A DNA stretch of 64,000 bases from Gammaproteobacteria bacterium (GTDB lineage Bacteria > Pseudomonadota > Gammaproteobacteria > GCA-001735895): NCBI GenBank assembly GCA_050118655.1, contig JASFKL010000001.1, positions 186 through 64,185 of the forward strand, in the 5' to 3' direction. This document shows positions 4,618-26,472 of the stretch, in pieces. The first letter of the stretch is position 1, and each line of letters opens with the position of its first letter. Position numbers and translations under genes: made by a program. The notes beneath the pieces are model-generated. The model worked only from the letters and a program-made list of their open reading frames with translations. It was not told the DNA's origin and did not search any database.

Positions 4618-5673
4618 ATGAGCCTTGAAATTGATCCCAAACAAATAAAATCCTTCTCTCCGATCAATTCTCTGAATCCAGAAAACGCTCAAGAATTAGT
4701 CAACAAAATTACCGCTACCCCGATCCAGGCGGGCCACTATATCTTCAAGAAAGGTGATATGGACAAGGCGCACGTCTACGTGCTCTCGGGCGAAGTGGAG
4801 CTGGTGCAGGACAAAAAGGTGGTCAAGACCATCAAGGCGGGCTCCCCGGAAGGCATGCAACCGCTGGCGCACGGATTTCCCCGGCCGGTGTCGGCGCGCG
4901 CCAAGGTCGCCTCGGTGGTCACCAAGATCAACAGCGACATGCTCGACATCATGCTGACCTGGGACCAGTCGGGCAGTTACTCGGTAGAACCCGTCGACGA
5001 AGAAGACGAAGAAACCGACTGGATGACCCGCATCCTGCAAACCCGGGCCTTCCATCGCATTCCGCCGGCCAATATCCAGGCGATGTTCATGCGCATGGAA
5101 TCGGTCAGCTTCAAGCCCGGCGAGAAAGTGATCGAACAGGATGCCGAGGGCGATTATTTCTACATCATCAAGGAAGGCCGTTGCCTGGTCACCCGCTCCA
5201 CGCCGGCCAACCCGAATGGCGTCAAGCTGGCGACCCTGTCGGTGGGCGACAGTTTCGGCGAGGAAGCGCTGATCTCCGACAGCAAGCGCAACGCGACGAT
5301 CACGATGCTGTCCGAGGGGCATTTGATGCGCCTCAACAAGGAGGATTTCAACTCGCTGCTGAACGAACCGCTGCTCAACTGGGTCGATTACGACGAGGCC
5401 AGGAAACTGGTCGATGCGGGCGCCGTCTGGTTCGACGTACGCCTGCCTACCGAGCACAAGGCCAAGCACATCAAGGGCAGTATCAATATCCCGCTGATTT
5501 TCCTGCGCATGAAGGCCAATTCGCTCGATACCGAAAAGAAATACGTCATCTATTGCGATACCGGCCGGCGCAGCTCCGCGGCCTCTTTTCTACTCAACGA
5601 AAAGGATATCGAGACCTTCGTATTGCGCGACGGCGTCGATACCGCCGAGCCCTCCGACCTGGTTACCAGCTAA
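4618..5673 (+). CDS. signalling protein with two cyclic-nucleotide-binding (CAP effector) domains fused to a C-terminal rhodanese domain
   Basis: Two cNMP-binding cores are present (FKKGDMDKAHVYVLSGEVEL and FGEEALISDSKRNATITM, with the G-E-x-A-L...R-x-A-T phosphate-binding cassette). The C-terminus is a rhodanese with an intact catalytic loop, YCDTGRRSSAAS. Confidence 0.85.
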   Translation: MSLEIDPKQIKSFSPINSLNPENAQELVNKITATPIQAGHYIFKKGDMDKAHVYVLSGEVELVQDKKVVKTIKAGSPEGMQPLAHGFPRPVSARAKVASVVTKINSDMLDIMLTWDQSGSYSVEPVDEEDEETDWMTRILQTRAFHRIPPANIQAMFMRMESVSFKPGEKVIEQDAEGDYFYIIKEGRCLVTRSTPANPNGVKLATLSVGDSFGEEALISDSKRNATITMLSEGHLMRLNKEDFNSLLNEPLLNWVDYDEARKLVDAGAVWFDVRLPTEHKAKHIKGSINIPLIFLRMKANSLDTEKKYVIYCDTGRRSSAASFLLNEKDIETFVLRDGVDTAEPSDLVTS

Positions 5674-5702
5674 CGCGCCTCGACGCCGTCGGATCCCGCC
5701 GC

Positions 5703-7307
5703 TCAGCCGGCGTAGCCCGGGATTAGCGATTCGTCTATTTCGTCGATCTGCTCCGGATCGAGAAACTCCTCGGCGTAGTCGAGGTAAACCCGCTCGCGAA
5801 TGAAGATCTCGAAGATATCGGGATCGATGTGATTGTCCTTTTTCATGAATCCCATGATGCGCAGGCACTCGGACAGTTTCTTGCCATGCTTGTATGGCCG
5901 ATCGCTGGCGGTCAGGGCCTCGAAAATATCGGCCACCGCCATAATCCGGGCCTGTACCGACATTTCCTCCCTTTTGAGCCCGCGCGGGTATCCCGTGCCA
6001 TCCATTTTTTCATGATGTCCGCCGGCATACTCGGGTACGTTTTGCAAATTGCGGGGAAACGGCAGCGATTCCAGCATCTTGATGGTCGCGACGATATGGT
6101 TGTTGATGACTTCCCGCTCTTCATCGTTCAGCGTGCCGCGCTTGATACACAGGTTCATGACCTCGTCGTCGGTCAAAAGCGGCCGCGTCTCGCCGGACCC
6201 GTCCACCCATTCGAGCCCGGCGAGTTGCTTTACCCGGTCGATATCCTCGTCGCTCATGAATTCGCCGCCGACATTGGCCTTGCGCAAAAATTCGAAATCC
6301 TGCCGGTATTGCTCGCGACGGGATTCGAGATCCCTGTCCAGTTGTTCGACATCGGCCTTCGATCCGTTTGCCGCTAGACGTTTTTTCAAGTATTCGATTT
6401 CGGCGTCGCGCTGCAGGATCACGAAACGGGTTTCCAGCGCATTGATACGATCGTAAATCGTTTCCAGCTTGGTGGCCTTGTCCATCACGTACTCGGGGGT
6501 AACCACCTTGCCGCAATCGTGCAACCAGGCAGCGGTCTCGAGTTCGTAGCGATCCTTGTCGGTAATTCTGAAATCCTTCAGCGGCCCCTTGTCGTCCTGG
6601 TGCGCGGCCTCGGCAAGCATCATCGTCAATACCGGAATCCGCCGGCAATGACCGCCGGTATAGGGCGACTTGTCGTCGATCGCCGAGGCGATCATGCGGA
6701 TAAAAGATTCGAACAGGATTTGCAGTTCCGAGATCAGTCTCCGCTGGGTCAGCGCGACGGCTGCCTGGGAAGCCAGTGACTCGGCGAGTTGCTGTTCGAC
6801 GGCGCTGAAAACTTTGACCTCGCCGGTTTGCTCGTTCCTGGCATTGATCAATTGCAGCACGCCGATGATTTCCTTCTCGTGGTCCTTGAGCGGAAAGGTC
6901 AGCATGGAGCGGGTGCGGTAACCGGTCTTTTCGTCGAAGGCCCGCGTGCCCGAGAAATCGAAGCCGTCCTCGTTATAGGCGTCGGCAATGTTGATGGTTT
7001 CTCCGGACAGTACGCAGTGGGAGACGACGTTGGCATGGTTATCCTTGCCTTCGATCGACAGCGGTATCGCCGGAAAAGTGATTTCGTTACCCGAGGTACC
7101 GCCCATCTGTATATCGAGCGAATCGTTGGAAATGATCTCGAATCTGAGTTCGCCGTCGTTCAGAAAATACAGCGAGCCGCCATCCGCGTGGGTGAGCGAT
7201 TTTGCTCCCATCATGATCAGCTCGAGCAGCTTGGGCGTATCGTTTTCCGCCGACAGCGCGATGCCGATTTCATTTAACCGATCAATCCTGTCGAGCAATT
7301 CTGACAT
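5703..7307 (-). CDS. GAF-domain HD-GYP phosphodiesterase (predicted c-di-GMP hydrolase)
   Basis: N-terminal GAF region; HD motif in AAWLHDCGK; HD-GYP signature GGHHEKMDGTGYPRGL. Confidence 0.9.
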   Translation of the reverse strand: MSELLDRIDRLNEIGIALSAENDTPKLLELIMMGAKSLTHADGGSLYFLNDGELRFEIISNDSLDIQMGGTSGNEITFPAIPLSIEGKDNHANVVSHCVLSGETINIADAYNEDGFDFSGTRAFDEKTGYRTRSMLTFPLKDHEKEIIGVLQLINARNEQTGEVKVFSAVEQQLAESLASQAAVALTQRRLISELQILFESFIRMIASAIDDKSPYTGGHCRRIPVLTMMLAEAAHQDDKGPLKDFRITDKDRYELETAAWLHDCGKVVTPEYVMDKATKLETIYDRINALETRFVILQRDAEIEYLKKRLAANGSKADVEQLDRDLESRREQYRQDFEFLRKANVGGEFMSDEDIDRVKQLAGLEWVDGSGETRPLLTDDEVMNLCIKRGTLNDEEREVINNHIVATIKMLESLPFPRNLQNVPEYAGGHHEKMDGTGYPRGLKREEMSVQARIMAVADIFEALTASDRPYKHGKKLSECLRIMGFMKKDNHIDPDIFEIFIRERVYLDYAEEFLDPEQIDEIDESLIPGYAG

Positions 7308-7634
7308 CTACTGGCACCTGCCCCTCGCGGAGGCCGAGCTACGCGAGCTTCGAAAGTCGCTCTATTCTAGGTGAATCCCCGGGCATTTCAATTCCGGGCC
7401 GGTTAAATTTTTAACCCCAAGCACTGGTAAAAAAGCGCATTCAACCTTATAGTTTAGAGGCATCACGATTCATAAGAATACCGGGGGGGATCCAAGCTGT
7501 TAACCAGTTCAAGGTGTTCGCATAAACTATTGAATATTATACGAATCGGATTTCTTCATTTTCCGGTCGCACACCCAGTAAAGTACGACTATAACAAGCT
7601 GGGTGACTAATAAGAATCAAACTATGGAGACGGT

Positions 7635-10265
7635 ATGAAAACCCGTTTTTGGAGTAGCGACTGGTTCGCCGGGCTGCTGATTACCATCGTGATTGTGGCG
7701 GTCTCGGGTTCCGGCCCCTTCCAAAGCCTGGAGCGCTCGTTTTACGACTGGGGCGTGCGCTCGACCGACAGGACTCCCTCCGACAAGATTGCGATCATCG
7801 CCATCGACGACGAGAGTATCGACAACCTGGGCCGCTGGCCCTGGCCGCGCGACCTCCACGCCGAATTGATCAACCGGCTTTCCGAGGGCGGAGCCAAGGT
7901 CATCGGTCAAACCGTATTTTTCCTCGAACCCCAGGTCGATCCGGGGTTGACCTATATCCGCGAACTGATCGAGTTTTTCTCTACCGCGAGCTTCGGCGAC
8001 GTTCCCGCCGATATCGATGCGCTGGGCGCGATGCTGGAACTGGGCGGCAACAATCGCAAGATAAACGATATCCTCGAATTCTATCTCCAATCGAGCCTGA
8101 ATACGCGTCTCAACCAGGATATCGAAACCCTGAAATCCCGAATGTTCGAAGCCGAGCAGGCGCTCAACACCGACGCCAAGCTCGCCGAGAGCATGGAAAA
8201 AGCCAAGAACGTCGTGCTGGCGATGGTCTTTTACCTGGGCATCCCGCGCGGCAAGCCCGACGAGGAACTGCCCGACTACGTGCTGAAAAACTCGATCAGC
8301 CAGATCCGTGACCGCGTATCGGCACAACCCAACGGCCTGTTCCCGATTCCGACCATCGATGCGCTGACACCGATTCCGGAAATCGGCCGCTACGCGGCGG
8401 CGATCGGCCATCTCAATACCCTGCCCGATATCGACGGCGGGGTTCGTTCAGAGCCGCTGGTGCTGCAGTACTACGACCGCTTCTTCCCGTCGATATCGCT
8501 GCAAATCGCCGCGCGCAGCCTGAACCTCGACACCAACGACATCCGCGTCAATCTGGCGGAGAGCGTCGAACTCGGCAGTCTGGCAATCAAGACCGATACC
8601 CAGCTGCAGATGAATACCTTTTACTACTCGAATCGCGATGGTTTTCCGGCATTTCCGGTGGATTCGTTTTACGACGTATTCACCGGCAAGATTCCGATCG
8701 AAAAGTATCGCGGCAAGATCGTTTTGATCGGCCCCACCGCCACCGGCGTCGGTACGCCGCAGGTCACTCCCATCGATCCCGCAATGGCGCCGGTACTGAC
8801 GCTCGCACACTCGGTTTCGAGCATCCTCAAGGAGGATTTTTTCATCGAGCCCGAATGGGGCTTCTGGGCGCGCATGGGTACCTTCCTCGTGGTTGCGCTC
8901 TACCTGATGCTGCTGATGCCGCGGTTAAAGGCCGGTGTCGCTTTCGTGGTCACCACGGTGCTGGTGCTGGCACTGATCGCCACCCATTACATACTGATGA
9001 CCGGCAGCACGATGTGGATTCAGTTGATGACCCCGGGGGCCCTGCTGGTGATCGGTTACCTGTTGATCACCACCAAGAGATTCCTGGTCACCGAGCGCGG
9101 CAAGGCCAAATCCGACGTGGAATCGGCCGAGAGCAACCGGATGCTGGGTATCGCATTTCAAACCCAGGGTCAACTCGACATGGCGTTCGAAAAATTCCGC
9201 AAGTGCAGCCCGGTCGACGAACAGGTGCTCGAGGCGATGTACAACCTGGCGCTGGATTTCGAGCGCAAGCGGCAATTCAACAAGGCCACTTCGGTGTACC
9301 AGTACATGGCCAAGCACGACAAGAGCTTCCGTGATATCGAAACCCGTATGAACCGCGCGCAGAAGATGGAAGAAACCGTCATGCTCGGCGGTAGCGGCGG
9401 ACATGCGGGCGGCACCCTGCTGCTCGATGGCAGCGGTGTCGAAAAACCGATGCTGGGCCGTTACGAAGTCGAAAAGGAACTCGGCAAGGGCGCCATGGGT
9501 ATCGTCTACCTGGGCAAGGACCCCAAGATCAGCCGGGTCGTGGCGATCAAGACCATGGCCCTGGCGCAGGAGTTCGAAGCCGACGAACTCGACGAGGTCA
9601 AGGAGCGGTTCTTCCGCGAGGCGGAAACCGCGGGGCGCCTGAATCATCCCAATATCGTAACCATTTACGATGCCGGCGAGGAGCACGATCTCGCCTATAT
9701 CGCGATGGAATTTCTCAAGGGCTACGACCTTACGAAACACTGCAAGCCCGATAACCTGCTGGAAATGAATACCGTGGTCAGCATCGTCCAGCGCGCCGCC
9801 GAGGGCCTCGATTTCGCGCACCGGCAAAACGTCGTGCACCGCGATATCAAGCCGGCCAACATCATGTACGAGCCGGAATCGGATACCATCAAGATTACCG
9901 ATTTCGGTATCGCGAGAATTACCGATTCGAGCAAGACCAAGACCGGGATGGTACTCGGCACGCCCTCTTACATGTCTCCCGAACAACTGGCGGGCAAAAA
10001 AGTCGATGGACGTTCCGACCTGTTTTCACTCGGCGTCATGCTTTACCAGATGCTTTGCGGATCCCTGCCCTTCAAGGCGGATTCGATGGCCAGTCTGATG
10101 TTCAAGATCACCAACGAAGAGGCCCCGGACATTCGCAGCGTGCGCGAGGATATACCCCATGGCCTGGTCGAAGTAATCGCCTTGGCCATGACCAAGGATG
10201 CCGACCAGCGATATCAGACAGGAGCCGATTTTGCCAATGCATTGAAAGCATTTCTGAATAATTGA
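7635..10265 (+). CDS. CHASE2 sensor domain / TPR-like linker / Hanks-type Ser/Thr protein kinase (membrane-bound)
   Basis: N-terminal TM followed by a CHASE2 region (IAIDDESIDNLGRWPWPRD). Several TM helices follow (residues ~420-470), then TPR-like helices. The C-terminal kinase shows GKGAMGIVY, VAIK, HRDIKPAN, DFG and SPE motifs. An RBS (GGAGA) lies 5 nt upstream of the ATG. Confidence 0.9.
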   Translation: MKTRFWSSDWFAGLLITIVIVAVSGSGPFQSLERSFYDWGVRSTDRTPSDKIAIIAIDDESIDNLGRWPWPRDLHAELINRLSEGGAKVIGQTVFFLEPQVDPGLTYIRELIEFFSTASFGDVPADIDALGAMLELGGNNRKINDILEFYLQSSLNTRLNQDIETLKSRMFEAEQALNTDAKLAESMEKAKNVVLAMVFYLGIPRGKPDEELPDYVLKNSISQIRDRVSAQPNGLFPIPTIDALTPIPEIGRYAAAIGHLNTLPDIDGGVRSEPLVLQYYDRFFPSISLQIAARSLNLDTNDIRVNLAESVELGSLAIKTDTQLQMNTFYYSNRDGFPAFPVDSFYDVFTGKIPIEKYRGKIVLIGPTATGVGTPQVTPIDPAMAPVLTLAHSVSSILKEDFFIEPEWGFWARMGTFLVVALYLMLLMPRLKAGVAFVVTTVLVLALIATHYILMTGSTMWIQLMTPGALLVIGYLLITTKRFLVTERGKAKSDVESAESNRMLGIAFQTQGQLDMAFEKFRKCSPVDEQVLEAMYNLALDFERKRQFNKATSVYQYMAKHDKSFRDIETRMNRAQKMEETVMLGGSGGHAGGTLLLDGSGVEKPMLGRYEVEKELGKGAMGIVYLGKDPKISRVVAIKTMALAQEFEADELDEVKERFFREAETAGRLNHPNIVTIYDAGEEHDLAYIAMEFLKGYDLTKHCKPDNLLEMNTVVSIVQRAAEGLDFAHRQNVVHRDIKPANIMYEPESDTIKITDFGIARITDSSKTKTGMVLGTPSYMSPEQLAGKKVDGRSDLFSLGVMLYQMLCGSLPFKADSMASLMFKITNEEAPDIRSVREDIPHGLVEVIALAMTKDADQRYQTGADFANALKAFLNN

Positions 10266-10279
10266 GCCCAGACTGTTTG

Positions 10280-11104
10280 ATGAATTTGCAAAACAAGATA
10301 ACCATCCAGGGCCTGACTGACACGGGGATAGTGCGCGGCAAGAACGAGGACGCGATCGGTTATGACAGCGCGCTGGGTCTCGTGGTTCTCGCCGATGGCA
10401 TGGGAGGTCATCGCGGCGGCGAAATAGCCAGCAGTATGACCGTCGATACGGTTATCAATCTCCTGCAGCAGCGGCTGCCGGAAATCAACTCCGGCGACGT
10501 CGACGAAGCCAGTGGATTTTCGATGGAGTCGATTTGTATCCAGGATGCCGTGGTCGCGGCCAACGAACTGGTCTACAAGACCGCCGAGGCCAATCCCGAA
10601 CACAAGGGAATGGGCACCACGATCGTGGTATTGCAGTTCTACAACAATTCCTTCTCCCTCGCCCATATCGGCGACTCGCGCTGTTATCGTCTGCGCAATG
10701 ACAAGCTCGAACAGATTACCAAGGATCACTCCCTGTTACAGGAACTCATCGACCGCGGCTTCTATACGCCCGAAGAAGCGCGCAATTCGATGAACAAGAA
10801 TCTCGTGACGCGTGCCCTGGGCATCGATCCGATCGTCATGCCGGACATACAGGAGGATATAGTCCTGAAAAATGACATATATTTGCTATGTTCAGATGGG
10901 TTAACGGATTTAGTCGAAGACGAAGATATATACTTAACTATTAAGCAATTTAGTGCTAATCTAGAAGAAGCTGCCAAGCAATTGATTACAAAGGCAAACC
11001 AGAATGGCGGAAAGGATAATATTTCGGTAATGCTGTGCCGGATTGACGATGATTTTTCGTCCCGGCAAGGCTGGTTCAACAAGATTGTCGGCTGGTTCGA
11101 CTAA
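10280..11104 (+). CDS. PP2C-family Ser/Thr protein phosphatase
   Basis: Translation TDTGIVRGKNEDA...VLADGMGGHRGGEIAS...GDSRCYRL...LCSDGLTD shows PP2C motifs. I set the start at the ATG at 10280, 15 nt after the kinase stop; the ORF-track TTG at 10262 would overlap the kinase stop. Confidence 0.88.
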   Translation: MNLQNKITIQGLTDTGIVRGKNEDAIGYDSALGLVVLADGMGGHRGGEIASSMTVDTVINLLQQRLPEINSGDVDEASGFSMESICIQDAVVAANELVYKTAEANPEHKGMGTTIVVLQFYNNSFSLAHIGDSRCYRLRNDKLEQITKDHSLLQELIDRGFYTPEEARNSMNKNLVTRALGIDPIVMPDIQEDIVLKNDIYLLCSDGLTDLVEDEDIYLTIKQFSANLEEAAKQLITKANQNGGKDNISVMLCRIDDDFSSRQGWFNKIVGWFD

Positions 11105-11150
11105 CGGATTACACACCCAGTACAAACTACTCTACAGGCTGGATAATAAA

Positions 11151-11873
11151 ATGGTCGCAAAACTGATCACTACTTCAAGCACGGGCGAAAAAACCGAGTA
11201 TGAACTGGTCAATGAAACCACCACGATTGGGCGTAAGCCGGGTAACGATATTCAAATCGATAATCTGTCAGTCAGCGGCAGGCATGCGCAGGTAATCACC
11301 ATCCTCGAAGATTCATTTCTGGAAGATCTCGGCAGCACCAACGGCACTTACGTCAACGGCAAACTGGTAAAAAAACACGCGCTCGAAGACGGCGACAGTA
11401 TCACCCTGGGCAAGTATCAAATCACCTACCAGAATAACTCCGGCGGCGGTGAACAGGATTTCGAACAAACCATGATTATCCGCCCCGGCGAAGCGGGCAT
11501 GCCCGAAGAAGCCGGCAGCAAGGAAATCGACAAGTCGGTGCAAAAAATTTCAGCGGCGATCGCCTCGGAGGCAGCCAGCACAGCCTCGTCGCCGATGTCT
11601 AACAAGGAAGCCTGCCTGCAATTGCTCAGCGGCGCCAACGCCGGCAAGGAGCTGGTATTGACCAAGGCCCTGACCACCATCGGCCAGCCGGGTGTGCAGG
11701 TGGCGGCGATCACCCGCCGTCCGCAAGGCTTTTTCCTGATTCACGTCGATGGCGGCCCGAACAACAATGTCCCGAAAGTCGGCGGCTCGGAGATCGGCTC
11801 GAACGCGCACGAACTCAAGAGCCACGACATTATCGAAGTAGCCGGCGTAAAAATGGAGTTCTACCTCAAATAA
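11151..11873 (+). CDS. FHA-domain protein (N-terminal canonical FHA plus C-terminal FHA-like domain)
   Basis: N-terminal FHA signature TIGRKPGNDIQIDNLSVSGRHAQV...GSTNGTYVNG. C-terminal second domain TTIGQPGVQVAAITRRPQGFFLIHVDGGPNNNVPKVGGSEIGSNAHELKSHDIIEVAGVKMEF. I set the start at the internal ATG at 11151. Confidence 0.8.
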   Translation: MVAKLITTSSTGEKTEYELVNETTTIGRKPGNDIQIDNLSVSGRHAQVITILEDSFLEDLGSTNGTYVNGKLVKKHALEDGDSITLGKYQITYQNNSGGGEQDFEQTMIIRPGEAGMPEEAGSKEIDKSVQKISAAIASEAASTASSPMSNKEACLQLLSGANAGKELVLTKALTTIGQPGVQVAAITRRPQGFFLIHVDGGPNNNVPKVGGSEIGSNAHELKSHDIIEVAGVKMEFYLK

Positions 11874-11913
11874 AGCCGTTCCTGCTCGTCCGCATTGAAA
11901 CCGGGGGCAAACA

Positions 11914-14145
11914 ATGCAATTACAGCGCATAGTCAGGCTGGTGCTTAGCGCACTGATCCTGCTGGTCATCCTGCTCGACACCTCCGGAGTTTACAAGTAT
12001 CCATTCATCAAGCAGCTGGAAAACTGGACTTACGACGCGCGGCTGAACTTTACCCGTCCCGATACCGTCGACGATCGCGTGGTTATCGTCGATATCGACG
12101 AAACCTCGCTCGCCGAGGTCGGCCGCTGGCCCTGGGGTCGCGACCAGCTCGCGCGCATCGTCGACAACCTGTTCGACTTTTACGGGGCCGACGTGGTCGC
12201 CTTCGATATCGTATTCGCCGAAAAAGACGAGAGCTCCGGACTGGAACAGTTCGAGCAGCTGGCGCGAACCACGTTGCGCGGCGACGAGGAATATATCGAG
12301 GCGCTCGATAAGATCCGGCCGAGCCTCAAACACGACGAAATTTTCGCGCAGAGCCTGGTCGGTAAAAACGTCGTTCTCGGCTATTACTTCAAGTCCAGGT
12401 TGCAGGAAGGAGAAAGCGGTGTCACCGGCCTCCTGCCCCCCGCATTGACCAGGATGGACAGGCAGTGGAGCGAACGCCTGCCGATCAACAAGGCGGTAGG
12501 CTACGGCGGCAACCTGGAAATACTGCAAACCTCGGCACGCTCCGGCGGCTACTTCGACAACCCCTTCGTCGATGCCGACGGCGTATTTCGCCGCGTGCCG
12601 CTGGTGCAGTCCTACCAGGGCTACCTGTTCGCCTCGCTGGCTCTCGCCACTACCCAGGCGTATCTCGACGCCGACGGTATCGAGCTGGCGATCGAAACCG
12701 AGGGAACGCGCGGCGAGAACGAATATTTCGCGCTGGAGACGATTAACCTGAAGAATCACAAGATTCCCGTGGACGCCAACGGCGCGGTGTTCGTGCCCTA
12801 CCGCGGCAGGCAGGGAAGCTTTCCCTATATCCCCGCCCACGAAGTGCTGAGCCGCAAGACCAACCCGCTGGCGCTAAAGAACAAGATCGTACTGATCGGC
12901 ACCTCGGCACCGGGCCTGCTCGACCTGCGCTCTACTCCAGTACAAAACATTTATCCCGGGGTCGAGGTCCATGCCAATATCATTTCCGGCATCCTCGACG
13001 ATCGTATCAAGCACAAGCCGGCCTGGACGGTGGGTTACGAACTCGTGTTACTGATAGTCATCGCGGTCAGCATGGCCTTGCTGTTGCCGCTGGTTTCGCC
13101 GCTGCTGGCGGCGACCGGGACGCTCGGGATTACCGGCCTGGTGGTCGCCGGAACCTTCGTCGCCTGGAACAACAACCTGATCCTGCCGCTGGCGAGCCCG
13201 CTGCTGCTGATTCTGTTGCTGTTCATGCTGCACATGTCCTACGGATTCTTCATCGAGTCCCGTGGCAAGCGGCAGCTCGCTAACCTGTTCGGGCACTACA
13301 TACCGCCCGAACTGGTCGACGAGATGAGCGAATCGCCCGAGGAATATTCGCTCGAGGGCGAGAACCGTGAAATGACCGTGCTGTTTTCGGACGTGCGCGG
13401 ATTCACGTCGATCTCGGAAGGCATGGACCCGAAACAGTTGACCCAGCTCATGAACGCGCTGTTGACGCCGATGACGCGCGTCATCCACAAGAACCGGGGT
13501 ACGATAGACAAGTACATGGGAGATGCCATCATGGCCTTCTGGGGCGCGCCGCTGGCCAATGCCGAGCATGCCCGGCACGCGCTCTATGCCGCACTCCAGA
13601 TGATGGAAGAACTGAAGATAATGCAGGAAGACTTCAAGCAACGCGGCTGGCCGACGGTCAACATCGGTATCGGCTTGAACACCGGCGACATGAACGTCGG
13701 CAACATGGGATCGGAATTCCGCATGGCTTATACCGTGCTCGGCGACGCGGTCAACCTGGGTTCGAGGCTCGAGGGCCTGACCAAGGAATACGGCGTCAAC
13801 ATCATCGTCAGCGAATCCACCAAGGCGGCGATACCCGAATTCGTATTCCGAGAACTCGACCTGGTCAGGGTGAAAGGCAAGAACGAACCGGTCGCAATTT
13901 TCGAACCGGTCGGGCACAAAAACGATCTCGACAAGTCGGTCACCTCGGAGATCAGCGAATACCGCAAGGCATTGATGAACTTTCGCTCCCAGTCCTGGGA
14001 CAAGGCCGAGCTCGATTTCTTCAACCTCAACCGCATCAACCCGGACCGGCAGCTATACCAGGTCTACCTCGAACGTATCGCGGTCTACCGCAGGGAGCCG
14101 CCCGGAGAGGGCTGGGACGGCGTTTTTACGCACACCACGAAGTAA
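11914..14145 (+). CDS. CHASE2 sensor domain / class III nucleotidyl (adenylate/guanylate) cyclase, membrane-bound
   Basis: CHASE2 region (VVIVDIDETSLAEVGRWPWGRD) is paralogous to that of the kinase. TM helices follow (residues ~370-440). The cyclase catalytic domain shows FSDVRGFT, KYMGDAIMAFWGAP and GDAVNLGSRLE. Confidence 0.9.
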   Translation: MQLQRIVRLVLSALILLVILLDTSGVYKYPFIKQLENWTYDARLNFTRPDTVDDRVVIVDIDETSLAEVGRWPWGRDQLARIVDNLFDFYGADVVAFDIVFAEKDESSGLEQFEQLARTTLRGDEEYIEALDKIRPSLKHDEIFAQSLVGKNVVLGYYFKSRLQEGESGVTGLLPPALTRMDRQWSERLPINKAVGYGGNLEILQTSARSGGYFDNPFVDADGVFRRVPLVQSYQGYLFASLALATTQAYLDADGIELAIETEGTRGENEYFALETINLKNHKIPVDANGAVFVPYRGRQGSFPYIPAHEVLSRKTNPLALKNKIVLIGTSAPGLLDLRSTPVQNIYPGVEVHANIISGILDDRIKHKPAWTVGYELVLLIVIAVSMALLLPLVSPLLAATGTLGITGLVVAGTFVAWNNNLILPLASPLLLILLLFMLHMSYGFFIESRGKRQLANLFGHYIPPELVDEMSESPEEYSLEGENREMTVLFSDVRGFTSISEGMDPKQLTQLMNALLTPMTRVIHKNRGTIDKYMGDAIMAFWGAPLANAEHARHALYAALQMMEELKIMQEDFKQRGWPTVNIGIGLNTGDMNVGNMGSEFRMAYTVLGDAVNLGSRLEGLTKEYGVNIIVSESTKAAIPEFVFRELDLVRVKGKNEPVAIFEPVGHKNDLDKSVTSEISEYRKALMNFRSQSWDKAELDFFNLNRINPDRQLYQVYLERIAVYRREPPGEGWDGVFTHTTK

Positions 14146-14151
14146 TACCGT

Positions 14152-15390
14152 TTACCAGCAGGCGCGTAATTCCCGCGCCAGTATGCCGACGCCTTTTTCG
14201 AGTTCCTCCTCGCTCTGCGCATAGTTCATGCGCACGCAACTCTCGGCGTGCGCGGACACGTTCTGCTGCCCGGGAAAGAAGTACTTGCCAGGCACGACCA
14301 GTAAACCGTTGCGCTTGAGCCGCTGGTAGAGTTCGGTAGTGGTCACGCCGAGATCTTCGAACCACAGCCACAGGAACATCGATCCCTCGGGTTTGTGGAT
14401 GTGCAGCCGCGGATCCTCGATCGCCTCGCGCAGCAGCCTGACCGCGAGTTCCGAGCGCTGCAGGTAAAACGGCCGGATGATATCGTCGCAAAGCGGTTGC
14501 AGGGCATCGTCGACGATCAGCTGGCGGACGATTTCGGCGCCGAGACCCGCCGGCGCGAGGCTGGTTATCGCGGTCATGTTGGAAAAATAGCGAATCAACT
14601 CCTCGTTGGCGATCACGATCCCGGTACGCGCGCCGGGCAACCCGAGCTTCGACAGGCTCATGCAAACGATGCAGTTATCGTTCCAGAAGGGATTGACGCC
14701 GGTGAATATGATGTTCGGGAAAGGCGTGCCGTAGGCATTGTCGATCAACAGCGGAACGTCGTGGTCGCGGGCGATCTGGTCGAGTTGCCCGCACTCGGCG
14801 TCGGTGAGCACGTTGCCGCTCGGATTGGTAGGCCGAGAAACGCAAATCAGGCCCACGGAATCGTCGGCCTCGAGCTGCTCGAAGTCGACCTGGTACTTGA
14901 AAAACCCGTCATCGAGGTGCTGAATCCTGGCCTCCTGGCTGGCGAGCAATCCCTCTTCGATACCGACGTCGCAGTAGCCGATATACTCGGGCACCAGCGG
15001 GATCAGAACGCGTTTACGGCCTTGCCTCGAGCGGCCGGCAAAAGAATTGAATAGAATGAAGAACGAACTCTGGCTACCGTGGGTCAAGGCGATATTGCGG
15101 CTGCTGATCGGCCAGCCGTAACGATCCCGGAAGTACTCGGCCAGCGCTTCGAGAAAGCCCGCCCTGCCCTGCGGCGCATCGTAGTTGGAAAGCGCCTCGA
15201 CCAGGGCGCCCGATTCCCGCAGTTTGTCGAGCACCTGGCCCACTATCTTCTTGACCTCGGGGATCGAAGCGGGATTGCCGCCGCCGAGCATGACCACGCC
15301 GGGTTGCGCGAGACCCTCGCTCAAATCGTCCATCAGGTGGGTAATACCGGAGTAACCGTTGAAATGTTCGCCGAATTCAGAAAATTTCAT
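14152..15390 (-). CDS. avtA: valine-pyruvate aminotransferase (aminotransferase class I/II)
   Basis: N-terminus MKFSEFGEHFNGYSGITHLMDDLSEGL...MLGGGNPASIPE resembles the E. coli AvtA N-terminus from memory. A PLP-lysine region SLSKLGLPGARTG is present. Confidence 0.85.
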   Translation of the reverse strand: MKFSEFGEHFNGYSGITHLMDDLSEGLAQPGVVMLGGGNPASIPEVKKIVGQVLDKLRESGALVEALSNYDAPQGRAGFLEALAEYFRDRYGWPISSRNIALTHGSQSSFFILFNSFAGRSRQGRKRVLIPLVPEYIGYCDVGIEEGLLASQEARIQHLDDGFFKYQVDFEQLEADDSVGLICVSRPTNPSGNVLTDAECGQLDQIARDHDVPLLIDNAYGTPFPNIIFTGVNPFWNDNCIVCMSLSKLGLPGARTGIVIANEELIRYFSNMTAITSLAPAGLGAEIVRQLIVDDALQPLCDDIIRPFYLQRSELAVRLLREAIEDPRLHIHKPEGSMFLWLWFEDLGVTTTELYQRLKRNGLLVVPGKYFFPGQQNVSAHAESCVRMNYAQSEEELEKGVGILARELRACW

Positions 15391-18865: not shown

Positions 18866-18942
18866 TGGCGGAGTGGACGGGACTCGAACCCGCGACCCCC
18901 GGCGTGACAGGCCGGTATTCTAACCAACTGAACTACCACTCC
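18866..18942 (-). tRNA. tRNA-Asp (GUC)
   Basis: Reverse complement GGAGTGGTAGTTCAGTTGGTTAGAATACCGGCCTGTCACGCCGGGGGTCGCGGGTTCGAGTCCCGTCCACTCCGCCA. Anticodon loop CUGUCAC. Near-identical to E. coli tRNA-Asp. Confidence 0.92.
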
Positions 18943-18950
18943 AGATTAGG

Positions 18951-19026
18951 TGGTGGGTGCTGACGGGATCGAACCGCCGACCCTCGCCTTGTAAGGGCGA
19001 TGCTCTCCCAGCTGAGCTAAGCACCC
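18951..19026 (-). tRNA. tRNA-Val (UAC)
   Basis: Reverse complement GGGTGCTTAGCTCAGCTGGGAGAGCATCGCCCTTACAAGGCGAGGGTCGGCGGTTCGATCCCGTCAGCACCCACCA. Anticodon UAC. Confidence 0.92.
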
Positions 19027-25705: not shown

Positions 25706-25791
25706 TGGTGCGAAAGGAGAGACTCGAACTCTCACATCGTAAAGATACCAGAACCTAAATCTGGCGCGTCTACCAATTCCGCCACTTTCGC
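25706..25791 (-). tRNA. tRNA-Leu (UAG), long-variable-arm type, 86 nt
   Basis: Reverse complement GCGAAAGTGGCGGAATTGGTAGACGCGCCAGATTTAGGTTCTGG...GAGTTCGAGTCTCTCCTTTCGCACCA. Anticodon loop AUUUAGG. Confidence 0.88.
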
Positions 25792-25892
25792 AGTCGTTTC
25801 GTGCCTGCCTGATTACCGGACGCCGTGCCGCGCTCCGCGTCGCCGCGCGGAGTCGAAAACTAACGGCGCCTGCATCGCAGGCGCCGTGTGTA

Positions 25893-25969
25893 TGGGGTGG
25901 ACGATGGGGATCGAACCCACGACAACAAGAATCACAATCTTGCACTCTACCAACTGAGCTACGCCCACC
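25893..25969 (-). tRNA. tRNA-His (GUG), with the extra 5' G(-1)
   Basis: Reverse complement GGTGGGCGTAGCTCAGTTGGTAGAGTGCAAGATTGTGATTCTTGTTGTCGTGGGTTCGATCCCCATCGTCCACCCCA. Confidence 0.92.
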
Positions 25970-25975
25970 ATAATT

Positions 25976-26052
25976 TGGCACGCCCGGCAGGATTCGAACC
26001 TGCTACCCTCGGCTTAGAAGGCCGATGCTCTATCCAAATGAGCTACGGGCGC
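25976..26052 (-). tRNA. tRNA-Arg (UCU)
   Basis: Reverse complement GCGCCCGTAGCTCATTTGGATAGAGCATCGGCCTTCTAAGCCGAGGGTAGCAGGTTCGAATCCTGCCGGGCGTGCCA. Confidence 0.92.
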
Positions 26053-26056
26053 TTCG

Positions 26057-26194
26057 GATACCTCTCTCACGGCGTATTTTAGCCGATTGCTGCGTTGCCG
26101 CCGTGCTCGGATCCTCATGTATGTCTTTATACACTGCGGTCCTGCGCGCGGCGGCGCCTTGCACTCAACTAAAATACGCCGTGAGAGAGGCATC
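26057..26194. repeat. 138-bp element bounded by 26-nt inverted repeats (25/26 match) in the tRNA-Pro/tRNA-Arg spacer
   Basis: Left arm GATACCTCTCTCACGGCGTATTTTAG (26057-26082). Right arm CTAAAATACGCCGTGAGAGAGGCATC (26169-26194). The 86-nt interior is GC-rich. The element begins 4 nt from the tRNA-Arg 5' end. Confidence 0.7.
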
Positions 26195-26395
26195 CTCCAG
26201 TTCAAATTCCGACCGGTCATCCTAAACCTTTTGTATCCCCGGATTGCCGCCGTAGGGGAGGCAACCTGGATTCGTCTTGCCGGCGATAATTCCATTAATA
26301 TACGCGCCAATCGCGTATTCGGATGCCGGGAACCTGCCGTTTCCTCGAACCCCCGATATCCGGGGTGCAATGATAGCAAATTCCCGACAAAATTG

Positions 26396-26472
26396 GTCGG
26401 GGTGGAGAGATTCGAACTCCCGACCCACTGCTCCCAAAGCAGTTGCGCTACCAGGCTGCGCTACACCCCGTG
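26396..26472 (-). tRNA. tRNA-Pro (UGG)
   Basis: Reverse complement CGGGGTGTAGCGCAGCCTGGTAGCGCAACTGCTTTGGGAGCAGTGGGTCGGGAGTTCGAATCTCTCCACCCCGACCA. Confidence 0.9.

Follow-up and report, generated by a model that had tools for sequence, protein, structure and literature searches.

The window analysed here is a stretch of 64,000 nt from a gammaproteobacterium (GenBank assembly GCA_050118655.1, contig JASFKL010000001.1, positions 186 to 64,185), and its subject is a cluster of signalling genes (Table 1) in which a CHASE2-domain Ser/Thr kinase, a PP2C phosphatase, an FHA-domain protein (the adaptor), and a CHASE2-domain nucleotide cyclase are encoded on one strand. The four open reading frames were present as described in the initial annotation of this DNA, with Pfam domains in agreement, and all four peptides quoted there were located in the kinase or cyclase translation (IAIIAIDDESIDNLGRWPWPRD, kinase residues 52-73; VVIVDIDETSLAEVGRWPWGRD, cyclase residues 56-77; DKYMGDA, cyclase residues 532-538; YTVLGDAVN, cyclase residues 606-614). 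Of the intergenic gaps given as 15, 46, and 40 nt, the latter two were correct, but the first is 14 nt with the PP2C gene starting at the ATG at 10280; gene calls of the Joint Genome Institute (JGI) on four metagenome contigs with an identical kinase have the same boundaries. The idea of a single transcript is plausible, the gene order and short gaps being repeated in approximately 80 species. The unit proved larger than the four genes, however, because an upstream pair reaching back to 4618, a cyclic nucleotide monophosphate (cNMP)-binding/rhodanese protein and a GAF-HD-GYP phosphodiesterase, had been missed. The catalytic motifs of all four core genes are intact in sequence comparisons. Taken as a whole, the region 4618-14145 probably constitutes one signalling unit of known parts that works through the cyclic AMP (cAMP) and adaptor-switch mechanism proposed below, a reading held with moderate confidence. 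Across related loci, the kinase, PP2C, and FHA genes form an invariant core, and the cyclase, the HD-GYP enzyme, a cNMP phosphodiesterase, a GAF-containing PilB-like ATPase, and a pilin are recurrent, dispensable partners.

Table 1. Genes and features of the signalling cluster in the window, in order of position.
Feature	Position	Strand	Length	Remarks
cNMP-binding/rhodanese protein gene	4618..5673	+	351 aa	cytoplasmic (predicted)
GAF-HD-GYP phosphodiesterase gene	5703..7307	-	534 aa	divergent to the kinase gene
Divergent intergenic region	7308..7634		327 nt	conserved promoter-like elements
CHASE2 Ser/Thr kinase gene	7635..10265	+	876 aa	predicted parts: first transmembrane helix (TM1), periplasmic CHASE2, three TM helices, conserved juxtamembrane helical segment, ETVMLGG motif, Hanks kinase domain
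PP2C phosphatase gene	10280 (ATG)..11104	+	274 aa	
FHA protein (adaptor) gene	11151 (ATG)..11873	+	240 aa	
CHASE2 nucleotide cyclase gene	11914..14145	+	743 aa	predicted parts: TM1, periplasmic CHASE2, three TM helices, catalytic domain, C-terminal helical tail

The kinase is, from its motifs, an active-looking Hanks-type Ser/Thr kinase. Its catalytic domain matches Pfam Pkinase (2.7e-56) and the PknB/Stk1-type model of NCBIfam (306 bits), and the Hanks motifs, namely LGKGAMG, Lys639, His-Arg-Asp737, Asn742, Asp756-Phe-Gly, and GTPSYMSPE, are conserved in 76 sequences; the activation loop contains Thr763, Thr768, and Thr770. Between the last transmembrane helix and the kinase domain lies a strongly conserved helical segment (NRMLGIAFQTQGQLDMAF...LDFERKRQFNKA) with an ETV[MI]LGG motif, in which Thr581 (nt 9375) is followed by a Leu at the +3 position. 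The phosphatase, in terms of sequence, is a PP2C of the Stp1/IreP type: it matches Pfam PP2C (1.3e-14) and NCBIfam Stp1_PP2C_phos (NF033484; 248.7 bits against a cut-off of 230), possesses the metal-binding residues Asp39, Asp206, and Asp246, and shares the motifs RxxNED, DGMGG, CSDGL, and GGxDN with its relatives (80 sequences). The family of the FHA adaptor comprises at least 347 representatives when a library clustered at 50% identity is searched at E <= 1e-30. Its N-terminal domain matches Pfam FHA (1.7e-21), has GarA/OdhI as the nearest solved relatives (1e-11), and carries the phosphothreonine-binding residues Arg28, Ser42, His45, and Asn64, which are conserved in every lineage sampled. 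Approximately 12 residues past this domain, Thr107 (nt 11469) lies in the linker sequence FEQTMIIRP, an instance of the motif [FY]E[QK]T[MV]xx[RK]; Thr107 is likewise present in every lineage sampled, from gammaproteobacterial metagenome-assembled genomes (MAGs) to Polaromonas and Gallionellaceae. At +3 to Thr107, nearly all adaptors have Ile, Leu, or Val, in keeping with common FHA preferences. The last ~85 residues of the adaptor (~155-240) are conserved and lack phosphothreonine-binding residues; Pfam assigned this part, by weak matches, to Yop-YscD_cpl in 10 of 14 orthologues and to FHA in the other four (best E ~1e-4), and a profile search of the PDB returned no significant match to it. 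These assignments mark it as a degenerate FHA-like domain that probably interacts with partners independently of phosphorylation.

The cyclase matches Pfam Guanylate_cyc (4e-23), and its nearest solved catalytic domains are those of Pseudomonas aeruginosa CyaB (3r5g, 1.4e-35), Synechocystis Cya2 (2w01), and Spirulina CyaC (1wc0, 7.6e-28). In the alignments with these domains, Asp493 and Asp537 coincide with the metal-binding Asp residues of CyaB and CyaC, so that the enzyme is not catalytically dead in the sense raised by the initial annotation. Lys533 occupies the column of the adenine-specifying Lys, Thr607 shares its column with the Thr of 3r5g (MDYTIIG) and 1wc0 (SDFTAIG), and the transition-state residues Asn614 and Arg618 follow with the spacing found in CyaC (Thr+7, Asn+4); these six residues (nt 13390-13767) are each at least 95% conserved among 41 cyclase orthologues. 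The earlier observation that the ATP-specifying Lys is present and that a Thr stands where the second specificity Asp was expected is thus accurate, whereas the conclusion drawn from it, that nucleotide specificity is not obvious, no longer stands, since the Lys-Thr pair is the polymorphism that marks class IIIb adenylate cyclases and settles the question in favor of adenylate cyclase. On this signature the enzyme is predicted to be a catalytically competent class IIIb adenylate cyclase. That it is instead a guanylate or promiscuous nucleotide cyclase, or inactive, could be argued from the absence of the canonical Asp of the Lys/Asp pair and from the relationship to Cya2, which is a guanylate cyclase; however, Cya2 has a Glu in the column of Lys533, and the class IIIb pair is accompanied by conserved metal-binding and transition-state residues, which makes either possibility very unlikely. 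The class IIIb-type Thr has been described as predictive of cyclases that are regulated by bicarbonate in the manner of soluble adenylyl cyclase (sAC) (PMC3383692). When the window cyclase is aligned with 120 relatives from Betaproteobacteria, no Thr that could serve as a docking site is conserved in the cytoplasmic part outside the catalytic fold, with the one exception of the penultimate Thr (83% conserved), which offers no +3 position to a phosphothreonine because it is next to the last residue. The same relatives share a C-terminal helical tail (residues ~668-743, window 13915-14145) of the pattern W..AE...NL....P...LY.....R....R..PP...WDG.....TK-COOH.

Few bacterial sensor domains are as widespread as CHASE2, and ligands have seldom been identified for it. 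Pfam CHASE2 was matched far above its cut-off of 26.3 bits by both the kinase (5e-51, 174 bits) and the cyclase (4e-60, 204 bits), and the homology of the two N-terminal regions claimed earlier was borne out by an alignment of ~430 residues (23% identity, E = 2e-16). The cyclase CHASE2 is 40-49% identical to cyclase-type orthologues of other classes and 23-24% identical to kinase-type domains, and the two regions are, as far as sequence comparison can tell, homologous but anciently diverged. Residues invariant in both types are Asp41, Asp62, Ser65, Trp74, Arg76, Asp141, Asp220, Asp222, Arg226, and Glu275 (cyclase numbering). Hydropathy analysis yielded one N-terminal and three later hydrophobic segments in the kinase (11-29, ~410-428, 431-449, and 460-478) and in the cyclase (3-21, 377-395, 398-416, and 422-440), with a Lys/Arg-rich stretch after the last helix in both receptors; on this basis the CHASE2 domains are predicted to be periplasmic and the output domains cytoplasmic, as had been proposed. 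No such hydrophobic segments occur in the PP2C phosphatase, in the FHA protein, or in either of the upstream proteins. An AlphaFold2 (AF2) model of cyclase residues 1-455 (predicted local distance difference test, pLDDT, 86) places helices at 2-23, 371-393, 396-419, and 427-454. The corresponding model of the kinase CHASE2, built on a shallow alignment, reached a pLDDT of 56 and was set aside; its least confidently modelled part is an extra helical stretch of the kinase-type domain (residues ~100-195, window ~7932-8219), within which a BLAST gap marks a 43-residue block that is missing from the cyclase-type CHASE2. The CHASE2 fold did not match any solved structure.

The GAF-HD-GYP enzyme matches Pfam HD_5 (1.6e-44) and GAF (5e-12). 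Its HD dyad, His263/Asp264 in LHDCGK, and its HHExxDGxGYP motif at 431-441 (GGHHEKMDGTGYP at 429-441) are conserved among 63 orthologues, and its GAF domain resembles those of PDE5, PDE2, and CyaB2. Among solved structures the best match is PmGH (4mcw, 6.8e-36), followed by V-cGAP3 (5z7c), a phosphodiesterase of cyclic GMP-AMP (cGAMP). Relative to PmGH, the HD-GYP domain is split by a conserved, largely helical insertion of ~110 aa (residues 276-386); the motif that flanks it (DKATKL ... KRGTLNDEE) looks duplicated. PmGH and Tlr0485, the latter a cAMP-activated GAF-HD-GYP phosphodiesterase of cyclic di-GMP (c-di-GMP) (bioRxiv 10.1101/2021.11.05.467447; PMC8846402), have the same architecture as the window enzyme, which is set apart by the insertion and by its genetic tie to the kinase, PP2C, and FHA trio. 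The other upstream protein, with matches to Pfam cNMP_binding (1.9e-28, two stretches) and Rhodanese (1.5e-12), is a candidate cAMP receptor on the strength of its domains. Its gene adjoins the cluster in ~35 gamma-clade loci and lies 3' of the cyclase in four of the seven betaproteobacterial contigs described below; the protein is 36% identical to its counterpart in Sideroxydans.

A profile of the kinase, searched against one genome per species, found 147 relatives, the best 80 of which were examined for synteny by BLAST and for partner genes within 10 kb. Carriers include uncultured Gammaproteobacteria, among them the Olavius algarvensis Gamma 3 endosymbiont and a closed MAG chromosome, as well as Methylophilaceae (Methylovorus, Methylotenera, and Methylophilus), Chitinimonas, Pseudorhodoferax, Hydrogenophaga, Polaromonas, and an Ectothiorhodospiraceae MAG. 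Wherever 4.5 kb or more of sequence was available downstream (65 loci), the trio was complete, and the PP2C gene was present in 79 of the 80 loci. The CHASE2 cyclase takes the fourth position in 39 loci, and the six-gene layout of the window is repeated in ~31 gamma-clade genome loci. The median gaps are 8, 44, and 52 nt, the last being that between the FHA and cyclase genes; where an HD-GYP gene follows the FHA gene, the median is 51 nt. In most lineages, the GAF-HD-GYP gene accompanies the kinase trio. Some loci depart from these layouts. In Hydrogenophaga (L080) the trio is followed by a PDEase_II-like match without a cyclase, and in Pseudorhodoferax (L072) by the cyclase and a PDEase_II-like gene; in L054 and L075 an inserted hybrid histidine kinase (HisKA-HATPase-REC-Hpt) separates the FHA gene from the cyclase. 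In the O. algarvensis Gamma 3 endosymbiont (L084), the kinase homologue consists of overlapping frames for CHASE2 (9941-12646) and the kinase domain (12379-13149), and the match (~9941-13149) spans 3143 nt compared with ~2630 nt usually; the symbiont gene may have suffered a frameshift or an insertion, or the old scaffold may be misassembled.

A search from the cyclase side, with the Chitinimonas cyclase as the query, revealed a wide distribution in Betaproteobacteria of cyclases with 55-57% identity to the query. In all seven contigs examined (Ferrigenium, Sideroxydans, and several Burkholderiales or unclassified MAGs), the CHASE2-kinase, PP2C, FHA, CHASE2-cyclase, T2SSE (PilB-like) ATPase, and GAF-HD-GYP genes form a co-directional array, an order also found in Chitinimonas. 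Six of the seven arrays have, after the cyclase, a metallo-beta-lactamase/PDEase_II-like gene, that is, a gene for a class-II-like cNMP phosphodiesterase. The ATPase is PilB-like (484 bits), ~795 aa long, and begins with a GAF domain, except in L090, where it is truncated to 494 aa and lacks the GAF domain. A PpdD-like, prepilin-type pilin gene comes after the GAF-HD-GYP gene in four of the seven (L085, L086, L087, and L088) and farther downstream in L090. Pfam MshEN was matched after the GAF domain in six of seven ATPases (those of L085-L089 and L091, not that of L065), some of these matches being weak, and the MshEN c-di-GMP motif RLGxx(L/V/I)(L/V/I)xxG...LxxxLxxQ, written as a regular expression, did not match in any of the seven. 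The PilB-like ATPase was accordingly dropped as a direct reader of c-di-GMP, and, since the canonical motif was not found, these ATPases may be regulated through GAF instead. The genes for the PDEase_II-like protein, the PilB-like ATPase, and the pilin are not found in the 64-kb window, and in view of these three absences the window cluster is a reduced and rearranged version of the larger conserved one. In the two Gallionellaceae-type contigs L085 and L090, a soluble protein of 427 aa that combines Pkinase and cNMP_binding (L085 1806-3089 and L090 1669-2952, both on the minus strand) is encoded divergently upstream of TerC-Usp-kinase and provides another kinase/cyclic-nucleotide link near the cluster.

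Based on these domain assignments and gene neighborhoods, a possible mechanism can be proposed for the cluster. A periplasmic cue would act on both CHASE2 domains, and it may be a shared or related cue for the two receptors, in which the same acidic and Arg residues are invariant. The cyclase would then make cAMP, which the GAF domain of the HD-GYP enzyme could read, with altered turnover of c-di-GMP (or of another cyclic nucleotide) as the outcome, as in Tlr0485; the cNMP-binding protein may also read cAMP. In parallel, the kinase would autophosphorylate at its activation loop and at juxtamembrane Thr581 and phosphorylate the adaptor at Thr107. Through its degenerate C-terminal FHA-like domain, the adaptor could then switch among the kinase, itself, and a partner enzyme, in the manner of GarA/OdhI or Fha1, and the PP2C phosphatase would reset this switch. 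The adaptor could have as its target the cyclase, the HD-GYP enzyme, or, in loci that encode one, the PilB-like ATPase. The step from cAMP to the GAF-HD-GYP enzyme is one that we infer from the Tlr0485 precedent, the PDE/CyaB2-type GAF domain, and the presence of cNMP genes in the same arrays. Gating of the cyclase by the FHA protein is plausible, and, since the trio survives without the cyclase, it cannot be the only role of the trio.

Several observations weigh against this mechanism. Co-transcription of the four genes, although plausible, has spacing and synteny as its basis. The NKFDE-type motif of the GAF domain is only partly recognizable, and HD-GYP enzymes can hydrolyze 3'3'-cGAMP (5z7c), so that the second messenger is not fixed as c-di-GMP. 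In 24 loci, mostly of Methylophilaceae, the fourth gene is a same-strand GAF-HD-GYP gene and no cyclase lies within 10 kb; no HD-GYP gene lies within 10 kb in the Comamonadaceae loci L072, L080, and L082; and the upstream pair is missing in the gamma-clade relatives L014 and L081. No single partner is therefore obligatory, the trio occurring both without the cyclase and without the HD-GYP enzyme. The lack of ATPase and pilin genes in the window counts in the same direction. Alternatives exist for the wiring of the unit, of which the circuit of the initial annotation, taken with the cyclase as the substrate, is one: the kinase phosphorylates a Thr of the cyclase, the FHA protein docks there and gates cAMP synthesis, and the PP2C phosphatase resets the site. 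In its favor, the FHA gene directly precedes the cyclase gene in 39 of 65 loci and in every one of the seven cyclase-anchored contigs; parallels are the solved structures 3gqs and 6hc1, in which FHA domains are fused to cyclase-like and to GGDEF proteins, and a kinase/cyclase fusion family of NCBIfam (TIGR03903). As stated, however, it is hard to reconcile with a trio that persists in the 24 cyclase-free loci and in Hydrogenophaga L080, or with a cyclase whose one conserved cytoplasmic Thr outside the catalytic fold is the penultimate residue; the conserved candidate phospho-sites are instead Thr107 of the FHA protein and Thr581 of the kinase, and the circuit is judged unlikely.

On the other hand, the kinase/PP2C/FHA switch may mainly control the GAF-HD-GYP enzyme, and hence c-di-GMP, with the cyclase as an accessory input through the GAF domain. 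The GAF-HD-GYP enzyme is the most widespread partner. Its gene is divergent in the gamma clade and occupies the fourth position in Methylophilaceae, 24-129 nt behind the FHA gene; it is also present in Chitinimonas and in each of the seven betaproteobacterial contigs found from the cyclase side (Gallionellaceae and Burkholderiales MAGs). The ~110-aa insertion conserved within its catalytic domain might serve as a regulatory surface. Since its gene is missing within 10 kb in the three Comamonadaceae loci and in L054, and no conserved loop Thr was identified in the protein, this arrangement is regarded as possible but doubtful. It may also be that two parallel, non-interacting pathways are clustered by a common cue or physiology and that the adaptor acts elsewhere, for example, on the pilus ATPase or platform, much as Fha1 does in type VI secretion. 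The free gain and loss of modular partner genes around a fixed trio would agree with this, as would the C-terminal domain of the adaptor, which belongs to the YscD cytoplasmic type known from secretion machines, and the GAF-PilB-like ATPase of the full clusters with a pilin gene in four of the seven. However, neither ATPase nor pilin genes were found in the window or in gamma-clade loci, and the lasting adjacency and short gaps across two proteobacterial classes argue for functional coupling; a separation of the pathways is thus considered improbable. The cAMP and adaptor-switch mechanism is the reading retained here with the confidence given above.

Parts of the proposed unit are known from other systems. 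In the PpkA/PppA/Fha1 module of type VI secretion, too, a Hanks kinase in the membrane, equipped with a periplasmic sensor, is encoded together with a PP2C phosphatase and an FHA protein; there the FHA protein is a kinase substrate that switches an ATPase-driven machine. In contrast, the sensor of the window trio is CHASE2 and its neighbors are cyclic-nucleotide enzymes. Membership of the adaptor in that module was rejected on the TagH model (46 bits against a cut-off of 120), and no Pfam families of type VI secretion were present among the genes in the 10-kb flanks or the scanned neighbors. GarA and OdhI are, like the adaptor, small soluble FHA proteins, with a conserved Thr of their own that is a kinase target and toggles enzyme binding; they differ in that this Thr motif (ETTS-type) precedes the FHA domain, whereas Thr107 lies after it, in having a single FHA domain where the adaptor has a second FHA-like one, and in having metabolic enzymes as their targets. 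The adaptor scored 66 bits with the OdhI model (cut-off, 200), and membership in this family was also rejected. Cyanobacterial Ser/Thr kinases such as tlr1540 and alr1869 resemble the window kinase, by architecture alone, in joining an N-terminal CHASE2 to a Hanks kinase domain (PMC2176072), and no conserved PP2C/FHA/cyclase neighborhood has been reported for kinases of this type.

Among cyclases, P. aeruginosa CyaB and Spirulina CyaC have Lys/Thr, Asp/Asp, and Asn/Arg residues identical to those of the window cyclase. Their sensors, MASE2 in CyaB and GAF, PAS, and receiver domains in CyaC, differ from CHASE2, and CyaB is regulated via the Pil-Chp system and not by a Hanks kinase. Through Vfr, the cAMP made by CyaB governs type IV pilus genes (PMC11656802). 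In Sinorhizobium meliloti, CyaD1, CyaD2, and CyaK share the architecture of the window cyclase, a CHASE2 ectodomain with a class III cyclase, and the likeness is one of architecture alone; these cyclases raise cAMP upon an external signal, a plant protein, that is relayed by the outer-membrane protein NsrA, and their output is the Crp-like regulator Clr (PMC13001267). A kinase, PP2C, or FHA partner of these cyclases is not mentioned in that report (PMC13001267).

No description of a cluster of CHASE2 with FHA, PP2C, HD-GYP, and adenylate cyclase was found in the searchable open-access literature, and the cluster is apparently unstudied; its novelty lies in the combination, as every component belongs to a known family. 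In proteobacteria, what is understood of Hanks-kinase/FHA signalling comes mostly from type VI secretion. The cluster, common to many beta- and gammaproteobacteria, appears from its gene content to couple protein phosphorylation to cAMP and probably to c-di-GMP signalling, and the locus thus offers a compact, conserved handle on cross-talk among Ser/Thr phosphorylation, cAMP, and an HD-GYP enzyme. It supplies candidate phospho-sites in adaptor Thr107 and kinase Thr581, cultured hosts in Chitinimonas species, among them C. viridis and C. koreensis, and in Methylovorus sp. MM2, and, in several betaproteobacteria, a readable output in the PilB-like ATPase and pilin gene; its carriers include environmentally important organisms such as a sulfur-oxidizing symbiont, iron oxidizers, and methylotrophs. 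More speculatively, the cluster may be a hub of three currencies, in which the CHASE2 pair reads one periplasmic cue and the adaptor, toggled at Thr107 by the kinase and PP2C, tunes a relay from cAMP through GAF-HD-GYP to c-di-GMP that, where the cluster is complete, drives a GAF-regulated PilB-like ATPase and pilin, a suggestion that we put forward tentatively and regard as doubtful. Because the cyclase is of class IIIb, such a hub might also integrate inorganic carbon, an input that, if true, would suit the often chemolithoautotrophic hosts (Gallionellaceae, sox-carrying Burkholderiales, and the sulfur-oxidizing worm symbiont). A 2024 review of PilB regulation names neither GAF nor FHA (PMC11656802).

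The divergent intergenic region also contains conserved elements. In an alignment of 19 gamma-clade intergenic regions, ACTGGTA (7423-7429) and TATAGT (7448-7453), separated by an 18-nt spacer on the plus strand, are conserved and promoter-like, and further conserved blocks are GCTGTTAACCAGTTCA (7496-7511) and TTGAATATTATACGA (~7530-7545), the former overlapping a predicted minus-strand -35 element. A palindrome, GGTTAAATTTTTAACC, lies at ~7401-7416. A consensus scan of 7308-7634 gave promoter-like sites on the minus strand only, and in a promoter and terminator scan of 7200-14400 the counts were not above those of shuffled sequence, with no convincing internal terminator. An Rfam scan of the whole window found only tRNAs, in Asp-Val and Leu-His-Arg-Pro clusters (18866-19026 and 25706-26470, minus strand). 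Nearby are housekeeping-like genes for DnaQ-like RNase_T and MltD-like SLT/LysM proteins (Pfam), together with genes that we take, by eye, to be FabI and PpiD; as these surroundings look housekeeping, the context of the cluster appears to be chromosomal rather than mobile.

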